NCBI GenBank assembly: GCA_963662265.2
Contig: CAXXHA010000010.1
Location: 32,001 to 96,000, forward strand
Direction of reading: 5' to 3'
Source of the DNA: Spirochaetia bacterium
Lineage (GTDB): Bacteria; Spirochaetota; Spirochaetia; CADAEX01
Length of the DNA stretch: 64,000 nucleotides
A program made the position numbers and the translations under genes. Under the pieces are notes generated by a model, which saw only the letters and a program-made list of their open reading frames with translations, was not told where the DNA came from and did no database searches. Below, in pieces: positions 17,872-24,414 of this stretch (position 1 is its first letter; each line of letters starts with the position of its first letter).

Positions 17872-19962
17872 ATGAGACTCAACGTAAAATGGAAGATCCT
17901 TCTTCCGGTAGTATTAATTCTTGTAATCTCCCTGGGAACAGTTACAGGATATTCGTACCTGCTTCAGAAAAAAATGGTGCATGATCTTATGGAAACAACT
18001 GCAGCTGAACAGCTGTCTGAAATAAGCAACATTGTAGAATCTTCAGAAAAACAGATCAGAAATCTTAAAAGTTCTCTCAACAGGAATTACCTGAGAATTG
18101 CAGAAACAATTGCAATAGCTGTCAAGGATGGAAGCAGTATTCTTGAAACAGGAAAAATGACAGAACTTGCAGAAACTGCAGGAATTGATGAAATCCATGT
18201 TACTGATGAAAACGGGATCCTCAGATGGGGAAACAAAACTGGTTTCTACGGATTTGATTTCAATACAAGCGATCAGACACAACCCTTTCTTGCGGGACTG
18301 AAAAATCCCTCCTTCCAGCTTGCCCAGGATCCCCAGCAGAGGGGTACAGACAAGGTCCTTTTTCAGTACATCGGTGTTGGGAGAAAAGACAGACCTGGAA
18401 TAGTACAGATAGGGGTTCAGCCGCTTGAGCTCAACAACCTTCTGGAATCATCATCAATCAGGAACACACTCAAAAACCTCAATATATCAAGGTCAGGTGT
18501 TGTCTATATTATCAATTCTGATGGAACAATTGCTGAAAGCTCTGCAATACTCAATGATAAACATCTTAACCCGGAATTGTGGAATTTCATTAAAAATTCC
18601 GGTAAAGAGGGAAAAGGCATTGTTGAAGACAGGTATGCAGGATTCATGGAAAACGATGATTACATATGGATGGTCACTTACCCGCTTACAGAGTTCACAT
18701 CAGAACTGAACAGCTTCCTTATACATGTCTTTATCATGTTTATTGTGCTTGCAGCAGTATCTGCAGCTGTAATCCTTCTCATTGTAAGCAGGATCACAAA
18801 TCCGCTTAAGAAAGGTGTAACTTTTGCAAACATGATTGCTCAAGGGGACCTCACAGCAGACCTTGAAGTGAATACTTCAGATGAGGTAGGAGTTCTTGCA
18901 TCGACACTCAGGCAGATGGTAGGCAAAATCAGCAACGTGGTGGAAAAAGTAGCAGACACATCACTGACAGTTGCATCAGGCAGCAGGCAGCTGAGCCAGA
19001 ACACTGTAAAAATGGCAGAAGGTACAAGCTCCCAGGCATCAGCAACTGAAGAGGTTTCAGCTTCCATGGAGGAGATGAGCGCGAACATAACCCAGAATGC
19101 GGAAAACGCCGACACAACAGAGAGAATTGCGATGCAGGCAGCAAAAGATGCTGTTGAAAGCAGCAAGTCAGCTAAAAAAGCTGTTGATGCAATGAATGTT
19201 ATAAATGAGAAAATCAGCATTGTGGAAGAGATTGCAAGGCAGACAAATATGCTTGCTCTTAATGCTGCCATAGAAGCTGCCCGGGCAGGGGAGCAGGGAA
19301 AAGGCTTTGCAGTTGTTGCATCTGAAGTCAGGAAACTGGCAGAAAGAAGCCAACAGGCTGCCGGTGAAATAACAGAACTTACCCAGTTGACAAGCGCTTC
19401 AGCAGATGAGACATCTGCAATGCTTAAAAAGCTTGTAGACGGAATTAACCAGACAGCCGAGCTTGTCAGGGAGATAAGTTCGGCAAGCAGGGAGCAGAGC
19501 GGAGGAGTTCAGCAGGTAAACAGGGCAATTCTCCAGCTTGATGAGGTTGTTCAGCAGAACGCATCCTTCTCTGAAGAGATTTCAGCCACAAGCGAGGAGC
19601 TTACAGCGCAGGCTGAATTTCTACAGGAGACTGTTTCCTACTTCAGGATTGATAAATCATCTTCAACAGGGGAAGATGCAGGTCTTCTTCTCCCGGCCGA
19701 AAGAAATGCCGGCAATGGCAGAGCTGCGGAATTAAATACTGCGGGTGTTTCGGCAGGAAGGAAAAGCTCTTCAGGCAGTGCTTCTGTTATAAGGGCTGCC
19801 GGAGCCGGGCAGGTTCGGATCACATCAGGGGCTGCCGGGGCTGCGGGAAAAACAGAAGAAACAGCTGCAGTTTTCAAGGCAGTATCAGCTGCTGAGTCAT
19901 TAAACAACGGAAATCCTTCTGATACTGATTCGATGTCAGATGGAGGGTTTAAGGAGTTTTAG
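17872..19962 (+). CDS. Methyl-accepting chemotaxis protein (Cache-like sensor, HAMP)
   Basis: TM-sensor-TM, [48 protein letters not shown]. Confidence 0.95.
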
Positions 19963-20109
19963 GTGGATCTGAAATTCTTATTTCATGATAATTGCACCAA
20001 GATGATTATGCCGTATAGATAAGAAGCTGCTTATCGGAAATCCGAGAGTACCGGGATTAAGTAACCGGGAAATACAATCAGCTACAGGCTGTGTGCAAAC
20101 TTGAATATT

Positions 20110-20143
20110 AAAAAGGCCTGCTTTGACAAGCAGGTCTTTTTTT
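20110..20143. terminator. Bidirectional intrinsic terminator between the convergent MCP and VOC genes
   Basis: AAAAAGGCCTGCTT-tgac-AAGCAGGTCTTTTTTT. Confidence 0.8.
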
Positions 20144-20153
20144 AAAAGGGATT

Positions 20154-20636
20154 CTACATCCCCATGCTTTCAAGCCATTCCTTTTCATTCTTTTTCATCT
20201 CATCTTCAGTAAGCTTCCACTTATTTGTCGCTATAGCCCAGACATGGCCGAAGGGATCAAGGACTTTCCCCATCCTGTCTCCCCAGAATGCATCCATTAT
20301 TTCATCCACAATTTCAGATCCGTTTTCCACCATTCCATTGTAAACAGCATCACAGTCTTCAACATATATAAACAAGCTCACAGTAGTCCCGTTAATAGCA
20401 CCTTTCTCCACACCTCCCGGATAGGAATCAGCCATCATAAGATTTGTATCCCCAATTCTTATCATTGAATGCATTATCTTATCACTGCCTGGAAAACTGT
20501 AAGGGGGAAAAACAAGTTCCGCCCCCAGCACTTTCCTGTAATATTCAATAGCTTCTGAACAGTTTCCATTAAACCACAGATTAGCTGTTACATTGTTCAT
20601 CCCTTCTGGGACAGGTTTTAATGCTTTTTCAGCCAT
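20154..20636 (-). CDS. VOC/glyoxalase-family protein (PhnB-like)
   Basis: AIEYY..VLGA, IMHS.IRIGD..LMMAD, DAFWGDRMGKVLDPFGHVW. Confidence 0.88.
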   Translation of the reverse strand: MAEKALKPVPEGMNNVTANLWFNGNCSEAIEYYRKVLGAELVFPPYSFPGSDKIMHSMIRIGDTNLMMADSYPGGVEKGAINGTTVSLFIYVEDCDAVYNGMVENGSEIVDEIMDAFWGDRMGKVLDPFGHVWAIATNKWKLTEDEMKKNEKEWLESMGM

Positions 20637-20913
20637 TAAAATTCTCCTTGTATAGAGATCTGTAAGTATGAATAATTAAGCCTTGAATTTTCTGTTTAAA
20701 CACCTGAAACATTTTATACCTTACTTTTATTAATAGTAGTTTCAAAATGATCTGTTTTCAAAAGAAACTCTTACATGAGGCTGTATTTACAATAAATTTT
20801 AATAAAATCAGATATTCTGAAGGCTTTATAAATTAAACAGGACGAAAATTCTTTCTTCAGGACCGGAAGATAATTTCATATTTAAACAAGCAGTGTTTTA
20901 AATATAAAATAAT

Positions 20914-20969
20914 ATCGATATTATTGTATCCAATATTGACATTTTTCTTATTCGATACTATATTATCCA
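20914..20969 (+). promoter_or_regulatory. Array unit 1 promoter with ATCGAT-type operator repeats
   Basis: TTGACA 20936-20941, 17 nt, TATATT 20959-20964; ATCGAT-N8-ATCCAA upstream and TTCGAT-N8-ATCCAT across the -10. Confidence 0.75.
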
Positions 20970-21044
20970 TACAGGTTGGGCAAACAACCTGTAGGTGAAA
21001 ATATTTTGTTTTTGAGAAAATCAAAAATAAAAAAAGAAAATAGA

Positions 21045-21152
21045 ATGTACGAAAGACCTCTGGTAAATGGCAAAATAATATCAGAAATAAGGTCTTTCAA
21101 TAAAAAAACTGCAAATACGTCCGGCAAAACAGTATTTGCAGTTATAATCTAA
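21045..21152 (+). pseudogene. Decayed paralog of the unit-2 47-aa microprotein (MYERPLVNGKIISEIRSFNKKTANTSGKTVFAVII)
   Basis: ERPLVNGK vs ERPFINGK and ANTSGKT vs AEATGKS. Upstream TTGAGAAAATCAAAAATAAAA aligns with TTGAGGAGATCAAAATGAAA of unit 2, with the RBS and ATG altered. Confidence 0.5.
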
Positions 21153-21202
21153 GACTTTTTTATAGATTCCTCCTAACCTTCTAAAAAGAGTTTTATTCAT
21201 GG

Positions 21203-21237
21203 GAACCTGCTGTAAGTTTTACAGCAGGTTCTTTTTT
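21203..21237 (+). terminator. Intrinsic terminator, unit 1
   Basis: GAACCTGCTGTAA-gtt-TTACAGCAGGTTC-TTTTTT. Confidence 0.85.
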
Positions 21238-21309
21238 CATTATTACCTCCTGTAATAATGAGTTGTTATTTATAAAACTGCAGTGAGTTTCACTGCAGTT
21301 TTTCTTTTT
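21238..21309 (+). other. Extra module: hairpin with CTCCT loop followed by a second terminator
   Basis: CATTATTAC-ctcct-GTAATAATG (21238-21260); AAAACTGCAGTGA-gtt-TCACTGCAGTTTT + T-rich tail (21274-21309). Confidence 0.6.
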
Positions 21310-21578
21310 GCTGGCCGTTGCTGCATAAACAGGCTTTTTATACTTATAATTCTGCATTTATTTCACAGACTTATCCGCTGATCACCTGGCAGAAATCTTA
21401 TATTTCCCTATTAACAGCTTTCAAGGACTCTAAAGCTGTTAAACTTATTTCAACAGTGTTTTATCCTCCCGGAATAATTCTAATTATCACGCAGTCTAAA
21501 CACTGTTTTGCCCATATTCCCATATGGAGCCCACCTGTCTACCTATCTAACTACCCAGAACCATGTAGATAAATTTTT

Positions 21579-21635
21579 ATCGATAATTACATATCTTATA
21601 TTGACATTTTTTATTTTCGATAGTATGTTATCGAT
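21579..21635 (+). promoter_or_regulatory. Array unit 2 promoter with ATCGAT-type operator repeats
   Basis: TTGACA 21601-21606, 17 nt, TATGTT 21624-21629; ATCGAT at 21579; TCGATA-gtatgt-TATCGA across the -10. Confidence 0.78.
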
Positions 21636-21676
21636 AGTTAGAGATTGAAATAAATAGTATTTCAAGGAGGACAATT

Positions 21677-21772
21677 ATGTTAGAAATTTTAATTGTAGCT
21701 ATTATAGCAGCTGGTGCAGTTTTTGCATTCATAGAAGACGGTCGTGTTAGTCCTAACGGAATCGACTGGTAA
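21677..21772 (+). CDS. 31-aa single-TM micropeptide MLEILIVAIIAAGAVFAFIEDGRVSPNGIDW
   Basis: AAGGAGG RBS 6 nt upstream; hydrophobic N-terminal helix; clear paralog at 22205-22306 with conserved IAAG...AFIEDG...PN..DW. Confidence 0.75.
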   Translation: MLEILIVAIIAAGAVFAFIEDGRVSPNGIDW

Positions 21773-21803
21773 TCTAGAAAAAACTTGTTTTGAGGAGATC
21801 AAA

Positions 21804-21947
21804 ATGAAAAAAATACTTAGTAAATTATCAGAAAGACCATTTATCAATGGCAAACAGAGACATATTAAAAAAGAAGGCCTTTCAATTAAGGCAGTTGCAG
21901 AAGCAACAGGAAAATCAATTGAATCTGTACTTTCAATGAAATTCTAA
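21804..21947 (+). CDS. 47-aa basic microprotein with an HTH-like C-terminus
   Basis: GAGGAG RBS; GLSIKAVAEATGKSIESV fits the S-x-x-x-[VI]-A-x-x-x-G-x-S-x-x-x-V helix-turn-helix pattern; decayed paralog in unit 1. Confidence 0.6.
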   Translation: MKKILSKLSERPFINGKQRHIKKEGLSIKAVAEATGKSIESVLSMKF

Positions 21948-21991
21948 AACTTCTTTTTAACTTCAAACCTTCTAAATTTTGAGTTTTATTC

Positions 21992-22028
21992 AAAAGACCT
22001 GCTGAGCCGTATACAGCAGGTCTTTTTT
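21992..22028 (+). terminator. Intrinsic terminator, unit 2
   Basis: AAAAGACCTGCTG-agccgtata-CAGCAGGTCTTTTTT; stem core ACCTGCTG/CAGCAGGT shared with the unit 1 terminator. Confidence 0.85.
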
Positions 22029-22105
22029 AATTTTTCAGTGAAAATCATTGATAACCTTTGTTCAGGAAGTAGATAAATAAAAATCATGCATTTTGATAAT
22101 ATATT

Positions 22106-22162
22106 ATCGATAATGCTGTATCCATACTTGACTTTTTCAGTTATCCTTTATACATTATCAAT
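22106..22162 (+). promoter_or_regulatory. Array unit 3 promoter with ATCGAT-type operator repeats
   Basis: TTGACT 22128-22133, 17 nt, TACATT 22151-22156; ATCGAT-N8-ATCCAT upstream, same spacing as units 1 and 2. Confidence 0.72.
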
Positions 22163-22204
22163 AACTTTAAATACGATTTTAATAATCTTGTTAAGGAGGC
22201 CAGC

Positions 22205-22306
22205 ATGTTACTTATCAATACTTTAGTAATCATGGCTATTGCAGCAGGAGTTTTAGCTGCATTCATTGAAGATGGAAAAACAGCACCAAATTGCTGTGAC
22301 TGGTAG
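22205..22306 (+). CDS. 33-aa single-TM micropeptide MLLINTLVIMAIAAGVLAAFIEDGKTAPNCCDW
   Basis: AAGGAGG RBS 5 nt upstream; paralog of 21677-21772 with synonymous codon changes in the shared FIEDG/PN/DW residues. Confidence 0.75.
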   Translation: MLLINTLVIMAIAAGVLAAFIEDGKTAPNCCDW

Positions 22307-22356
22307 AAAGTAGTCTGAAGATTTCAGATACTTGTAAAAACTGAAAACAATCAGTA

Positions 22357-22550
22357 GAAAGGTCTGTAATTTACAACAGGATTAACAATATAGAGAAAGG
22401 AAGACCTTTCACATTACATTCCATGATGCTGCAGCAAAAACAACAGAATCGGCATCCGGAATGTAAAACAAAAGACTTTTTAGATTCCTCCAAAATTCTA
22501 AAAAGAGTTTTATTTCCAGGCCCCGCAGCGTTGCTGAGGGGCCTTTTTTT
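22357..22550 (+). ncRNA. Putative structured RNA / 3' UTR-derived sRNA, array unit 3
   Basis: Stems 22357-22365/22402-22410, 22414-22422/22458-22466 and 22476-22484/22497-22505 with TTCCTCC in the loop; terminator 22518-22550. Confidence 0.6.
22518..22550 (+). terminator. Intrinsic terminator, unit 3
   Basis: AGGCCCC-g-CAGC-gtt-GCTG-a-GGGGCCT + T7. Confidence 0.82.
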
Positions 22551-22685
22551 CCCCCTTTCACGCAAATACCCATTCTCTCGGCAGCTTCATAAGATTTAAT
22601 AATAAAATTCCGCCTCTTGCGATTTATATGCATATCATGCAACTTCAACCATCCAGGTATTTTTACAAAATAATTACAGACTGTA

Positions 22686-22740
22686 TTGACTTTTTCCCTT
22701 TTCGATAGTATTATATCGATAACAAGTTACCGATAACAAG
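22686..22740 (+). promoter_or_regulatory. Array unit 4 promoter (no recognisable ORF follows)
   Basis: TTGACT 22686-22691, 17 nt, TATTAT 22709-22714; TCGATA-gtatta-TATCGA plus direct repeat CGATAACAAG at 22717 and 22731 (14-bp period). Confidence 0.65.
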
Positions 22741-22802
22741 CAATATTTCTGATGGCCAGAAATGTTTGACTTTATAAATACAACTGGAATAAGGCTGGAG
22801 AT

Positions 22803-22834
22803 AAAAAAAATCCCGGATCCGAAGAACCGGGATT
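22803..22834 (-). terminator. Intrinsic terminator of gdhA
   Basis: A-run then ATCCCGG...CCGGGAT stem downstream of the gdhA stop. Confidence 0.8.
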
Positions 22835-22871
22835 TATATAAGCCTAATCAGGCTAAATATAAAACTATATC

Positions 22872-24209
22872 CTAGTAACCGAGATCAAGCATTGCATCTG
22901 CAACTTTCTTGAAACCGGCAATATTAGCACCGTTGATGTAGTTTACAAAACCTGAAGCATCTTTGCCTTCTCTAACACAAGCAGCGTGGATGTCTTTCAT
23001 GATTACTTTGAGTTTTGCATCAACTTCTTCAGATGACCAGTTGTATTTCATTGAGTTCTGGCACATTTCAAGACCTGATACTGCAACACCACCGGCATTA
23101 GCAGCTTTACCAGGACCAAACGGGATCTTGTTTTTAACAAACTCAACTGCAGCATCTGCAGTACAGCCCATGTTGGATGTTTCAACAACATATTTAACAC
23201 CGTTTGAGATAAGAGCTTTTGCATCATCGAGAGTAAGCTCGTTCTGGAAAGCACAGGGGAATGCCATATCAACTTTAAGTTCCCATGGTTTTTTACCTGC
23301 AACAAATTTTGCGCCGAATTTTTCAGCGTAAGGAGCTACAACATCATTGTTGGAAGCTCTGAGCTCAAGCATATAGTCAAATTTTTCTTTTGTATTGATA
23401 CCTGCTTCATCATAGATGTATCCGTCAGGTCCAGAAATTGCCACTACTTTACCACCAAGTTCAGTAGCCTTCATTACAGCACCCCAGGCAACATTACCGA
23501 AACCTGAAACAGCAATTGTTTTGCCTTTCATTGAATCATTGTTTGTTTTGAGCATTTCATCAGCAAAATACATTGTACCAAAACCAGTTGCTTCAGGTCT
23601 TACAAGTGAACCGCCCCAGTTAAGGCCTTTACCTGTGAGTACACCTGTGTTTTCAGCTCTGAGTCTCTTGTACTGACCATACATGAAACCGATTTCTCTT
23701 CCGCCTACTCCGATATCACCTGCAGGAACGTCAGTCTGAGGACCGATATATTTCTGAAGTTCTGTCATGAAACTTCGACAGAATCTCATGATTTCTGCAT
23801 CTGATTTACCTTTAGGATTAAAGTCTGAACCACCTTTACCTCCACCCATTGGGAGAGTAGTAAGACTGTTTTTGAAAATCTGCTCAAATCCGAGGAATTT
23901 AAGAGTTCCGAGAGTAACGCTTGGGTGGAATCTGAGTCCGCCCTTATATGGACCAATAGCGTTGTTAAACTGAACTCTGTAAGCCTTGTTTACCTGTACT
24001 TCACCGTTATCATCTTCCCATTCAACTTTGAACATGAAAGTTCTGTCCGGCTCAGTAATTCTTTCAAGGATTTTTGCATCTACATATGCAGGGTTGTCGT
24101 TAACTACATCAATAATAGATTCAACTACTTCTTTTGCAGCCTGAATAAATTCCGGCTGAGCTGGGTTTTTTCTTTCCAGTTCTGCCATAAATTCGTCAAG
24201 ATTATACAT
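22872..24209 (-). CDS. gdhA: NADP-specific glutamate dehydrogenase
   Basis: GPYKGGLRFHPSV, PMGGGKGGSDF, DVPAGDIGVG, RPEATGFG, KAANAGGVAVSGLEM; AAGGAG RBS before ATG 24209. Confidence 0.96.
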   Translation of the reverse strand: MYNLDEFMAELERKNPAQPEFIQAAKEVVESIIDVVNDNPAYVDAKILERITEPDRTFMFKVEWEDDNGEVQVNKAYRVQFNNAIGPYKGGLRFHPSVTLGTLKFLGFEQIFKNSLTTLPMGGGKGGSDFNPKGKSDAEIMRFCRSFMTELQKYIGPQTDVPAGDIGVGGREIGFMYGQYKRLRAENTGVLTGKGLNWGGSLVRPEATGFGTMYFADEMLKTNNDSMKGKTIAVSGFGNVAWGAVMKATELGGKVVAISGPDGYIYDEAGINTKEKFDYMLELRASNNDVVAPYAEKFGAKFVAGKKPWELKVDMAFPCAFQNELTLDDAKALISNGVKYVVETSNMGCTADAAVEFVKNKIPFGPGKAANAGGVAVSGLEMCQNSMKYNWSSEEVDAKLKVIMKDIHAACVREGKDASGFVNYINGANIAGFKKVADAMLDLGY

Positions 24210-24414
24210 TTCTAACAGCTCCTTAAAACATTTTAATACCACCCCTCAGGGCGGTATTACTTATCTATATATAAAGCCTATTTCTGATATTAATCAAGTA
24301 TTAATATTGGCCTATCTATACATCTATACAAGTTAAATCATGAATATTGTTGATATTTAACATAGTGGTGTATTATTATTAAGAAAACGAACATTCTTTT
24401 TTAAGGAATTTACA

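Follow-up and report, generated by a model that had tools for sequence, protein, structure and literature searches.

A genus-specific tandem array of small transcription units in Spirochaetia, in which copies of a helix-turn-helix-like reading frame are candidates for structured RNAs with an anti-Shine-Dalgarno loop

The 64,000-nt stretch of DNA analysed here (the window) comes from a Spirochaetia bacterium (GTDB lineage Spirochaetota, Spirochaetia, CADAEX01; assembly GCA_963662265.2, contig CAXXHA010000010.1, positions 32,001 to 96,000 of the forward strand) and contains, in a 2.2-kb gap between a glyoxalase-family gene and the glutamate dehydrogenase gene gdh, an array of small promoter-to-terminator units that spans positions 20936-22840 (Table 1). 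The array comprises four promoter units, and a 68-nt promoter segment, composed of TTGAC(A/T), 17 nt and a TATATT-like box with TATCGATA-type palindromes on both sides, occurs four times in the gap. The promoters match the consensus at 9-11 of 12 positions, and five terminators were identified against 1.0 expected. Unit 1 begins with a promoter and a 5' hairpin, then carries what remains of a Shine-Dalgarno hairpin, and continues with hairpins 1 to 3, a terminator and a mini-module; unit 2 a promoter, an open reading frame (ORF) for a 31-aa hydrophobic peptide, an ORF of 47 aa (ORF47) and a terminator; and unit 3 a promoter, an ORF for a 33-aa peptide, hairpins 1, 2 and 3 and a terminator.

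Table 1. Features of the array and its flanks (positions within the window)
Feature	Position	Strand	Remarks
Glyoxalase-family gene	20154-20636	-	flanking gene
Promoter segments with palindromes	20904-20971, 21569-21636, 22096-22163, 22654-22721
Unit 1 promoter	20936-20964	+	TTGACA-17-TATATT, flanked by TATCGATA-type palindromes
Unit 1 5' hairpin	20970-20993	+	at predicted transcript start; 9-bp perfect stem, present in predicted fold; identical sequence in L034 unit 1
Unit 1 remnant of the lost ORF's Shine-Dalgarno hairpin	21004-21032	+	stem lengthened to 12 bp compared with L034 unit 1
Unit 1 hairpin 1	21051-21098	+	outer stem GAAAGACCT (21051-21059) / AGGTCTTTC (21090-21098), 9 bp, loop 30; inner stem 7 bp
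Unit 1 hairpin 2	21107-21143	+	AACTGCAAATAC (21107-21118) / GTATTTGCAGTT (21132-21143), 12-bp perfect stem; loop keeps CCGGCAAA
Unit 1 hairpin 3	21150-21195	+	UUCCUCC (21167-21173) in loop; loop unpaired probability 1.00
Unit 1 intrinsic terminator	21201-21239	+
Mini-module after unit 1 terminator	21237-21309	+	10-bp hairpin with CUCCU loop (21237-21261); second terminator (21274-21302)
Unit 2 promoter	21601-21629	+
Unit 2 small membrane-peptide ORF	21677-21772	+	31 aa; pN/pS vs G001 0.26
Unit 2 ORF47	21804-21947	+	47 aa, helix-turn-helix-like, coding form of the segment; hairpin-1 arms inside at 21831-21838 / 21876-21883
Unit 2 terminator	21992-22026	+	upstream hairpin-3 region without CCUCC
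Unit 3 promoter	22128-22156	+
Unit 3 small membrane-peptide ORF	22205-22306	+	33 aa; pN/pS vs G001 0.16
Unit 3 hairpin 1 (long-range)	22357-22410	+	GAAAGGTCT (22357-22365) / AGACCTTTC (22402-22410), 9 bp, loop 36
Unit 3 hairpin 2	22414-22466	+	TTACATTCC (22414-22422) / GGAATGTAA (22458-22466), 9 bp; 9 + 7 bp in all
Unit 3 hairpin 3	22470-22511	+	UUCCUCC (22485-22491) in loop
Unit 3 terminator	22518-22551	+
Unit 4	22686-22840	+	promoter of same type and ~120-nt predicted RNA; ends at bidirectional terminator common to gdh
gdh	22872-24242	-	flanking gene, glutamate dehydrogenase

Related units were found in close relatives. G001, a member of the same genus, has three corresponding units beside gdh; G002, also of this genus, has a single unit, in which a promoter precedes a 48-aa ORF, hairpin 3 and the terminator; and on the metagenome contig L034 the synteny is the same, three units lying between a glyoxalase-like gene and gdh. 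In L034, unit 1 has an intact ORF of 46 aa upstream of hairpin 3 and a terminator, unit 2 contains a peptide ORF and ORF47, and unit 3 a peptide ORF and a non-coding region.

ORF47 is, by its pattern of substitutions, a real gene under purifying selection (window versus G001: 11 synonymous and 8 non-synonymous differences; ratio of non-synonymous to synonymous differences per site, pN/pS, 0.20), and it is intact in five of the ten units, counting unit 2 of L034, where the frame is shifted between two indels. Its homologues number five among 5.8 billion proteins, and a protein profile search placed it in 3 of 20 genomes of the order, all from this genus. The AlphaFold2 model (predicted local distance difference test score, pLDDT, 80) consists of a short strand pair and three helices. 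Neither Pfam nor NCBIfam gave a significant match, the sequence search of the PDB reached a best E-value of 0.28, and Foldseek a best E-value of 1.8, with weak matches mostly to helix-turn-helix (HTH) domains; the neighbours in the Atlas were likewise mostly HTH domains, the HTH_3 clusters reaching a score of only 0.87. To judge from the model, ORF47 looks like an HTH protein, i.e. a candidate nucleic-acid-binding domain with no significant family or fold match. Its Shine-Dalgarno site lies in the loop of a small hairpin, in which L034 unit 2 exhibits a compensatory replacement of G-C by A-U.

Some further sequences related to ORF47 were encountered. Four additional homologues (P0001, P0003, P0004 and P0005) are encoded on public contigs. 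The copy in unit 2 of L034 (L034:3215-3360) carries two indels in homopolymer runs, a loss of one base near the ERP codons and a gain of one base after CTTTCAA, which displace the frame for about 20 codons before it returns; either these are sequencing errors or the copy is at an early stage of decay. A truncated variant of 39 aa (P0005), encoded on another public contig, is near-identical to the window copy where the two overlap. A 136-aa protein from a metagenome-assembled genome of Armatimonadetes (L033:2366-2776), which possesses a C-terminal hydrophobic segment, has in common with ORF47 only a 19-residue HTH stretch (LKSVAEATGKSIDTV).

In the alignment of ten units, the homology of units 1 and 3 of the window to unit 2 extends from the Shine-Dalgarno site through the terminator. 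In unit 1 of the window GAGGAG is replaced by GAGAAA and the ATG by ATA, and the old frame is broken by deletions of 5, 1 and 9 nt, while unit 1 of G001 exhibits other deletions and in-frame stops; at the same position in L034, and in the single unit of G002, the ORF is intact. The arms of hairpin 1 correspond to the codons for E-R-P and E-G-L-S, and CCGGCAAA in the loop of unit 1 hairpin 2 corresponds to the former A-G-K codons of the HTH turn. The differing lesions, the intact ORFs in the relatives and the pN/pS ratio of ORF47 support the claim of an earlier, purely sequence-based note on this locus (hereafter the original prediction) that one ancestral segment serves as an ORF in one copy and as structured RNA in the others.

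All four stems of hairpins 1 and 2 that the original prediction had named were recovered at their positions, both by reading of the sequence and by an exact inverted-repeat scan. Two adjacent pairs have indeed changed on both sides, pair 6 of hairpin 1 being A-U in unit 1 and G-C in unit 3, and pair 7 C-G and U-A, respectively; the arms in unit 2 (GAAAGACC and GGCCTTTC) lie inside ORF47 and contain one A.C mismatch, and a second hairpin is present in both units 1 and 3. A lone 9-bp stem is roughly at chance level in the region 20900-22560; a count of perfect inverted repeats (9 bp or more, loops of 3-60 nt) gives 13 there, versus 0.88 +/- 0.84 in shuffled sequences, and none of 100 shuffles reaches 13.

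Among the nine outer pairs of hairpin 1, the non-coding copies form 9, 8, 9, 9 and 6 and the coding copies 8, 7, 7, 7 and 7. Pair 6 is A-U or G-C in the non-coding copies and mismatched in four of the five coding ones, and pair 7 is C-G or U-A. Compared with the coding form, unit 3 has its mismatch repaired (A to G opposite C) and pair 7 altered on both sides; in unit 1 of G001, compared with its orthologs, it is pair 6 that has been altered on both sides. The mismatch of the coding copies falls on the third position of a Gly codon, and because the pairing base T occurs there in only one of the five, these copies show no sign of maintaining the stem. Thus, the notion of one fold conserved across the array stands in part: the fold is not kept across all units, the stem not being maintained in the coding ones, and it is tightened in those that stopped coding. 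By sequence comparison it is a fold inherited from codons for conserved residues (ERP and EGLS), which was then tightened where coding had ceased.

Hairpin 2 of the unit-1 lineage is already present in the coding copy of L034 and has been kept through 26-36% divergence. A direct repeat, CAGTA, allows the 3' arm to be aligned in more than one way, and the number of strictly compensatory pairs in this hairpin varies with the alignment chosen; that the hairpin is conserved is unaffected. In the unit-3 orthologs (n=3) hairpin 2 occurs at the same place with unrelated sequences. Contigs assembled from public reads yielded a near-identical strain with five differences, none of them in a stem, as well as fragments of relatives, one of which has A replaced by G at position 21052, turning an A-U pair into G.U.

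The segments derived from the ORF fold more stably than expected in the non-coding copies (z-scores from 300 dinucleotide shuffles each: window unit 1, -6.9; G001 unit 1, -7.1; window unit 3, -5.7; L034 unit 3, -3.8; G001 unit 3, -2.8), the five coding copies ranging from -1.0 to -3.5. The whole unit-1 RNA has a z-score of -9.2, with a minimum-energy fold identical to the centroid. When the same substitutions were placed at random in the unit-1 lineage, an equally stable fold was obtained in 22, 20, 3 and 19 of 2000 trials for hairpin 2, in 21 of 2000 for hairpin 1 and in 5 of 2000 for both together, and neutral placement is rejected for this lineage (3-22 of 2000). A covariance model of hairpins 1 and 2 recovers nine of the ten units; in the alignment fitted to it pairing is kept in 74% of cells, with double changes at 14 of 21 pairs, all measures being above those of 500 shuffles (0/500 as high) and of slid controls. 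The corresponding values for hairpin 3 with the terminator are 93% paired cells and double changes at 18 of 29 pairs (0/500 shuffles as high). Model-based alignments were used because MAFFT followed by RNAalifold misaligned the terminators of the 8-unit 3' module, calling 7 pairs. Selection on RNA structure, as claimed in the original prediction, is supported for the unit-1 lineage and the 3' hairpin by compensatory pairs, random placement and z-scores; for unit 3 the case is weak (see below).

The 3' module, i.e. hairpin 3 with the terminator, was found in all ten units, and the 3' hairpin is more conserved than the ORF. The motif UUCCUCC is invariant and located in the loop in eight of the eight units that have it, despite differing stems, and has been lost in the two others; its loops are predicted to be unpaired with a probability of 0.64-1.00. 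It contains CCUCC, the anti-Shine-Dalgarno core of the 16S rRNA 3' end (GGAUCACCUCCUUUCU). Only two copies have lost CCUCC, unit 2 in the window and unit 2 in G001, and these are the ones that kept ORF47 where other copies lost it. Such a reciprocal pattern in the two genomes (ORF kept and CCUCC lost in unit 2, ORF lost and CCUCC kept in the other copies) fits a division of labour after duplication.

The best reading of these sequences is that the non-coding copies are siblings derived from the ORF, either small RNAs (sRNAs) or 3' untranslated regions (3'UTRs), that would present an anti-Shine-Dalgarno loop. We tentatively propose, with a confidence that falls a little short of an even chance, that the array consists of genus-specific tandem units, of which the ORF-less copies are structured RNAs acting via this loop. 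All units descend from one ancestral unit, which possessed a strong sigma-70-type promoter with TATCGATA palindromes, a 47-aa HTH-like ORF with its Shine-Dalgarno site placed in a hairpin loop, a 3' UUCCUCC hairpin and an intrinsic terminator, a layout that is intact in the single unit of G002 and in unit 1 of L034. The sequences show that, after duplication, units 1 and 3 of the window lost the frame, with the ORF-derived sequence retained as two hairpins and tightened, and the UUCCUCC hairpin remaining near-invariant. The transcript of unit 1 would then be a free sRNA of ~270 nt, and the non-coding part of unit 3 the long 3'UTR of a membrane-peptide mRNA. By analogy with LhrC, the exposed loop may be the active part, pairing with AG-rich ribosome-binding sites and lowering translation; the ancestral mRNA would be affected by its own loop in cis, whereas the ORF-less copies would act in trans, and hairpins 1 and 2 would provide stabilising or scaffolding structure.

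A more far-reaching version, which we regard as rather unlikely to be correct in all its parts, describes a stepwise conversion of an mRNA into a regulatory RNA by duplication and division of labour, after which the ORF-less copies would control the membrane peptides and the remaining protein copy in trans. The ancestral transcript would have encoded a small DNA-binding protein and also carried an anti-Shine-Dalgarno hairpin; one copy would then have kept the protein without the motif, and the others the motif without the protein, with former codons recruited as stabilising hairpins. The intermediate stages would be represented among the relatives by the single intact unit of G002, by unit 1 of L034 with its ORF and hairpins, and by unit 2 of L034 with its frame shifted between indels.

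Several results, concerning unit 3, the targets of the loop and masking in cis, weigh against an RNA function of the proposed kind and bear also on the other explanations. The data set is a small and kindred sample (10 units from 4 closely related organisms), and the covariation figures for both modules overstate the support, because each alignment was fitted to its model and the sequences come from close relatives. A search of RNA runs returned none that contained the locus. Random placement of the substitutions in hairpin 1 of unit 3 (window versus G001) was not significant (281 and 424 of 2000), i.e. neutral placement is not rejected there, and unit 3 of L034 keeps only six of the nine pairs, its long-range stem being replaced by two local hairpins. 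One of these, GAAAGG-GAAA-CCTTTC, matches a local alternative in unit 3 of the window, GAAAGG-AAGA-CCTTTC (22395-22410), into which the 3' arm of hairpin 1 also fits; in the 3'UTR of this unit the centroid fold favours the local hairpin and the minimum-energy fold takes the long-range stem. Moreover, folding is more stable on the plus strand in four of four unit-1-type segments, and slightly more stable on the minus strand in three of three unit-3 segments.

Could units 1 and 3 then be decaying pseudogenes without any RNA function, whose hairpins persist by DNA template switching or quasi-palindrome correction, a process that makes imperfect repeats perfect and thereby looks like compensatory change? 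The results for unit 3 just mentioned, both the permutation and the folding of the minus strand at least equally well, agree with this possibility, as does the ambiguous homology of the hairpin-2 3' arm, and the arms of hairpin 1, which stem from codons for conserved residues, were already paired at 7-8 of nine positions in the coding copies. However, several non-coding stems contain G.U pairs, which are mismatches in a DNA-level repeat, the loops (CCGGCAAA and UUCCUCC) are constant while the stems vary, and a near-consensus promoter and a terminator have been retained in each unit. With a 3' hairpin better conserved than the ORF and hairpin 2 co-located in three unit-3 orthologs of unrelated sequence, we consider the pseudogene explanation unlikely.

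As regards the partners of the putative regulatory RNAs, no specific target was found for the loops of hairpin 3, hairpin 2 and the mini-module: the local ribosome-binding sites rank at 0.21-0.69 among 2609 genomic translation-start regions. Extended complementarity between units was not found either, since 9-18 of 40 shuffles were as good when the unit-1, unit-3 3'UTR and unit-4 RNAs were compared with the 5' parts of the peptide mRNAs. This lack of target specificity is what would be expected if the hairpins had no base-pairing role and were instead protein-binding elements (for ORF47 or another protein) or stabilising elements against RNases that set the half-life of the transcript. The resemblance of ORF47 to nucleic-acid-binding HTH domains speaks for such a role, and the palindromic promoter motifs occur in all units and therefore suggest one common regulator, perhaps a single dedicated repressor, possibly ORF47 itself. 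Against it stands the sole invariant single-stranded motif, which contains the CCUCC anti-Shine-Dalgarno core of 16S rRNA and is the simplest pointer to pairing with ribosome-binding sites; a purely protein-binding or stabilising function strikes us as improbable. The palindromes, TATCGATA or TTATCGATAA, are located in every promoter upstream of the -35 box and around the -10 box, and in the window's own genome the composite of palindrome and -35 box is confined to the array, apart from one unrelated match inside a coding region on C41.

The membrane peptides of units 2 and 3 each consist of one hydrophobic helix followed by a polar tail and are conserved (pN/pS 0.16-0.26); they gave no match in the family searches and no usable match in the Atlas. 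In type I toxin mRNAs, such as hok or aapA of Helicobacter, internal anti-Shine-Dalgarno or 5'-3' fold-back elements occur, and as in these systems a small hydrophobic ORF is found here on a structured mRNA with CU-rich sequences able to mask its ribosome-binding site. The 31-33 aa peptides may accordingly be imagined as membrane toxins, with the 3' CU-rich region locking their Shine-Dalgarno site in cis and unit 1 acting in trans as an antitoxin-like sRNA. In the minimum-energy folds of full transcripts the site is paired with the 3' CCUCC or CCUUC in four of six cases, and in unit 2 of the window and of G001 it is predicted to be unpaired with a probability of only 0.03 and 0.01, respectively (2 of 40 shuffled controls as low in each). 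In the shuffle test, which covered five of the six transcripts (all but M34 unit 3), masking surpasses the controls in those two; it does not do so in the other three, which gave 28/40, 8/40 and 39/40 and represent unit 2 of M34 and unit 3 of the window and of G001. Unlike in the hok and aapA systems, no antisense RNA was found, and the unit-1 RNA has no extended complementarity to the peptide mRNAs beyond that of the shuffles given above; the loops show no preference for the peptide ribosome-binding sites, no known toxin family matched the peptides, and the hairpin is present without a peptide gene in the ancestral type of unit (G002, L034 unit 1). A toxin-like system of this kind has, in our opinion, little probability.

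The 5' untranslated regions of the peptide mRNAs have the sequence UCUUGUUAAGGAGG in common (window 22183-22201; L022, which is unit 3 of G001; and L034 unit 2). Its complement, UAACAAG(A), is located between hairpins 2 and 3 in unit 3 of G001 and just after the stop codon of ORF47 in unit 2 of L034; the two are paired over 8-10 bp in minimum-energy folds, and in the window the complement is degenerate.

Returning to the anti-Shine-Dalgarno reading, the combination of a small ORF with a separate 3' RNA element on a short transcript resembles the dual-function RNAs SgrS/SgrT, SR1/SR1P and VcdRP, some homologues of which possess the RNA part only (PMC12612679). According to this review, sgrT is not present in all SgrS homologues, mRNAs whose 3' part was regulatory may be the source of dual-function RNAs, and the origin of sRNAs, including the question of whether dual-function RNAs began as mRNA or as sRNA, is described as open. 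Here ORF47 is, by its substitution pattern, a real small ORF on the transcript, and a base-pairing activity is only predicted. Unlike those systems, to which it has no sequence relation, the array exhibits ORF-less and ORF-bearing forms as adjacent tandem paralogs, with former coding sequence reshaped into hairpins.

A second resemblance is to LhrC1-5 of Listeria, which, as described in PMC8079631, are several homologous copies, partly in tandem, with stem-loops, a terminator and a conserved C/U-rich loop motif; the UCCC motifs of LhrC pair with AG-rich ribosome-binding regions. The array likewise has multiple copies, each with a promoter and an intrinsic terminator, and a C/U-rich loop motif in 8 of 10 units. 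It differs from LhrC1-5 in that UUCCUCC occurs once per unit (two in unit 1 with the mini-module), the units are ~270-400 nt long, they derive from a protein gene and the phylum is another, and in that the local ribosome-binding sites are not preferred partners of the loops.

The locus belongs to no described family. Two things are new: coding and non-coding forms are found next to each other together with intermediate ones, both as tandem paralogs and as orthologs, and former codons serve again as stems. It would offer a rare view of a coding gene turning into a structured RNA, in which the order of events can be read directly because all these versions exist within one array and across four close relatives. 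It would also add an undescribed structured RNA from an uncultured Spirochaetia genus, a lineage beyond the reach of experimental sRNA screens because these use cultured bacteria.

As far as the databases and genomes searched are concerned, the element is found in a single Spirochaetia genus. A DNA search of 41 genomes returned real matches only in the two other species of this genus, and a covariance model of hairpin 3 and the terminator, run against 151 genomes of the class, gave 12 matches outside the array, of which the 11 inspected were all ordinary terminators without a CCUCC hairpin. The Rfam 15 scan of 19500-24000 had its best match (27.1 bits versus a gathering score of 60) outside the array; the matches inside were terminator-like and far under the threshold, and no family was assigned. 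No second copy of a unit or of the array hairpins was found elsewhere in the window's own genome, and the array is not a dispersed repeat.

The mini-module downstream of unit 1 scores 32 bits with the covariance model of the 3' module in the window and 27 bits in G001, where it is kept with compensatory changes in the terminator stem; it was not found in L034. One of the 11 inspected matches outside the array, in L041, has 14 bases in common with the mini-module and turned out to be the 3' end of an unrelated gene. Two other candidates in unit 1 were discarded. A 15-codon ORF on the minus strand (21193-21240), which lies over the terminator and starts with a perfect AGGAGG-N5-ATG, is probably not a gene, because its two amino acid changes in G001 track the terminator stem and L034 has no start codon; and a 35-aa ORF, not conserved in G001, lacks a Shine-Dalgarno site. 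Unit 4 was seen only in the window genome, being absent from G001, G002 and L034; its ~120 nt open with a direct repeat of CGATAACAAG (two copies) and contain one hairpin. Finally, the spacer between unit 1 and the unit 2 promoter, which is shorter in G001, contains two more perfect hairpins, of 11 bp (21411-21442) and 10 bp (21452-21507).

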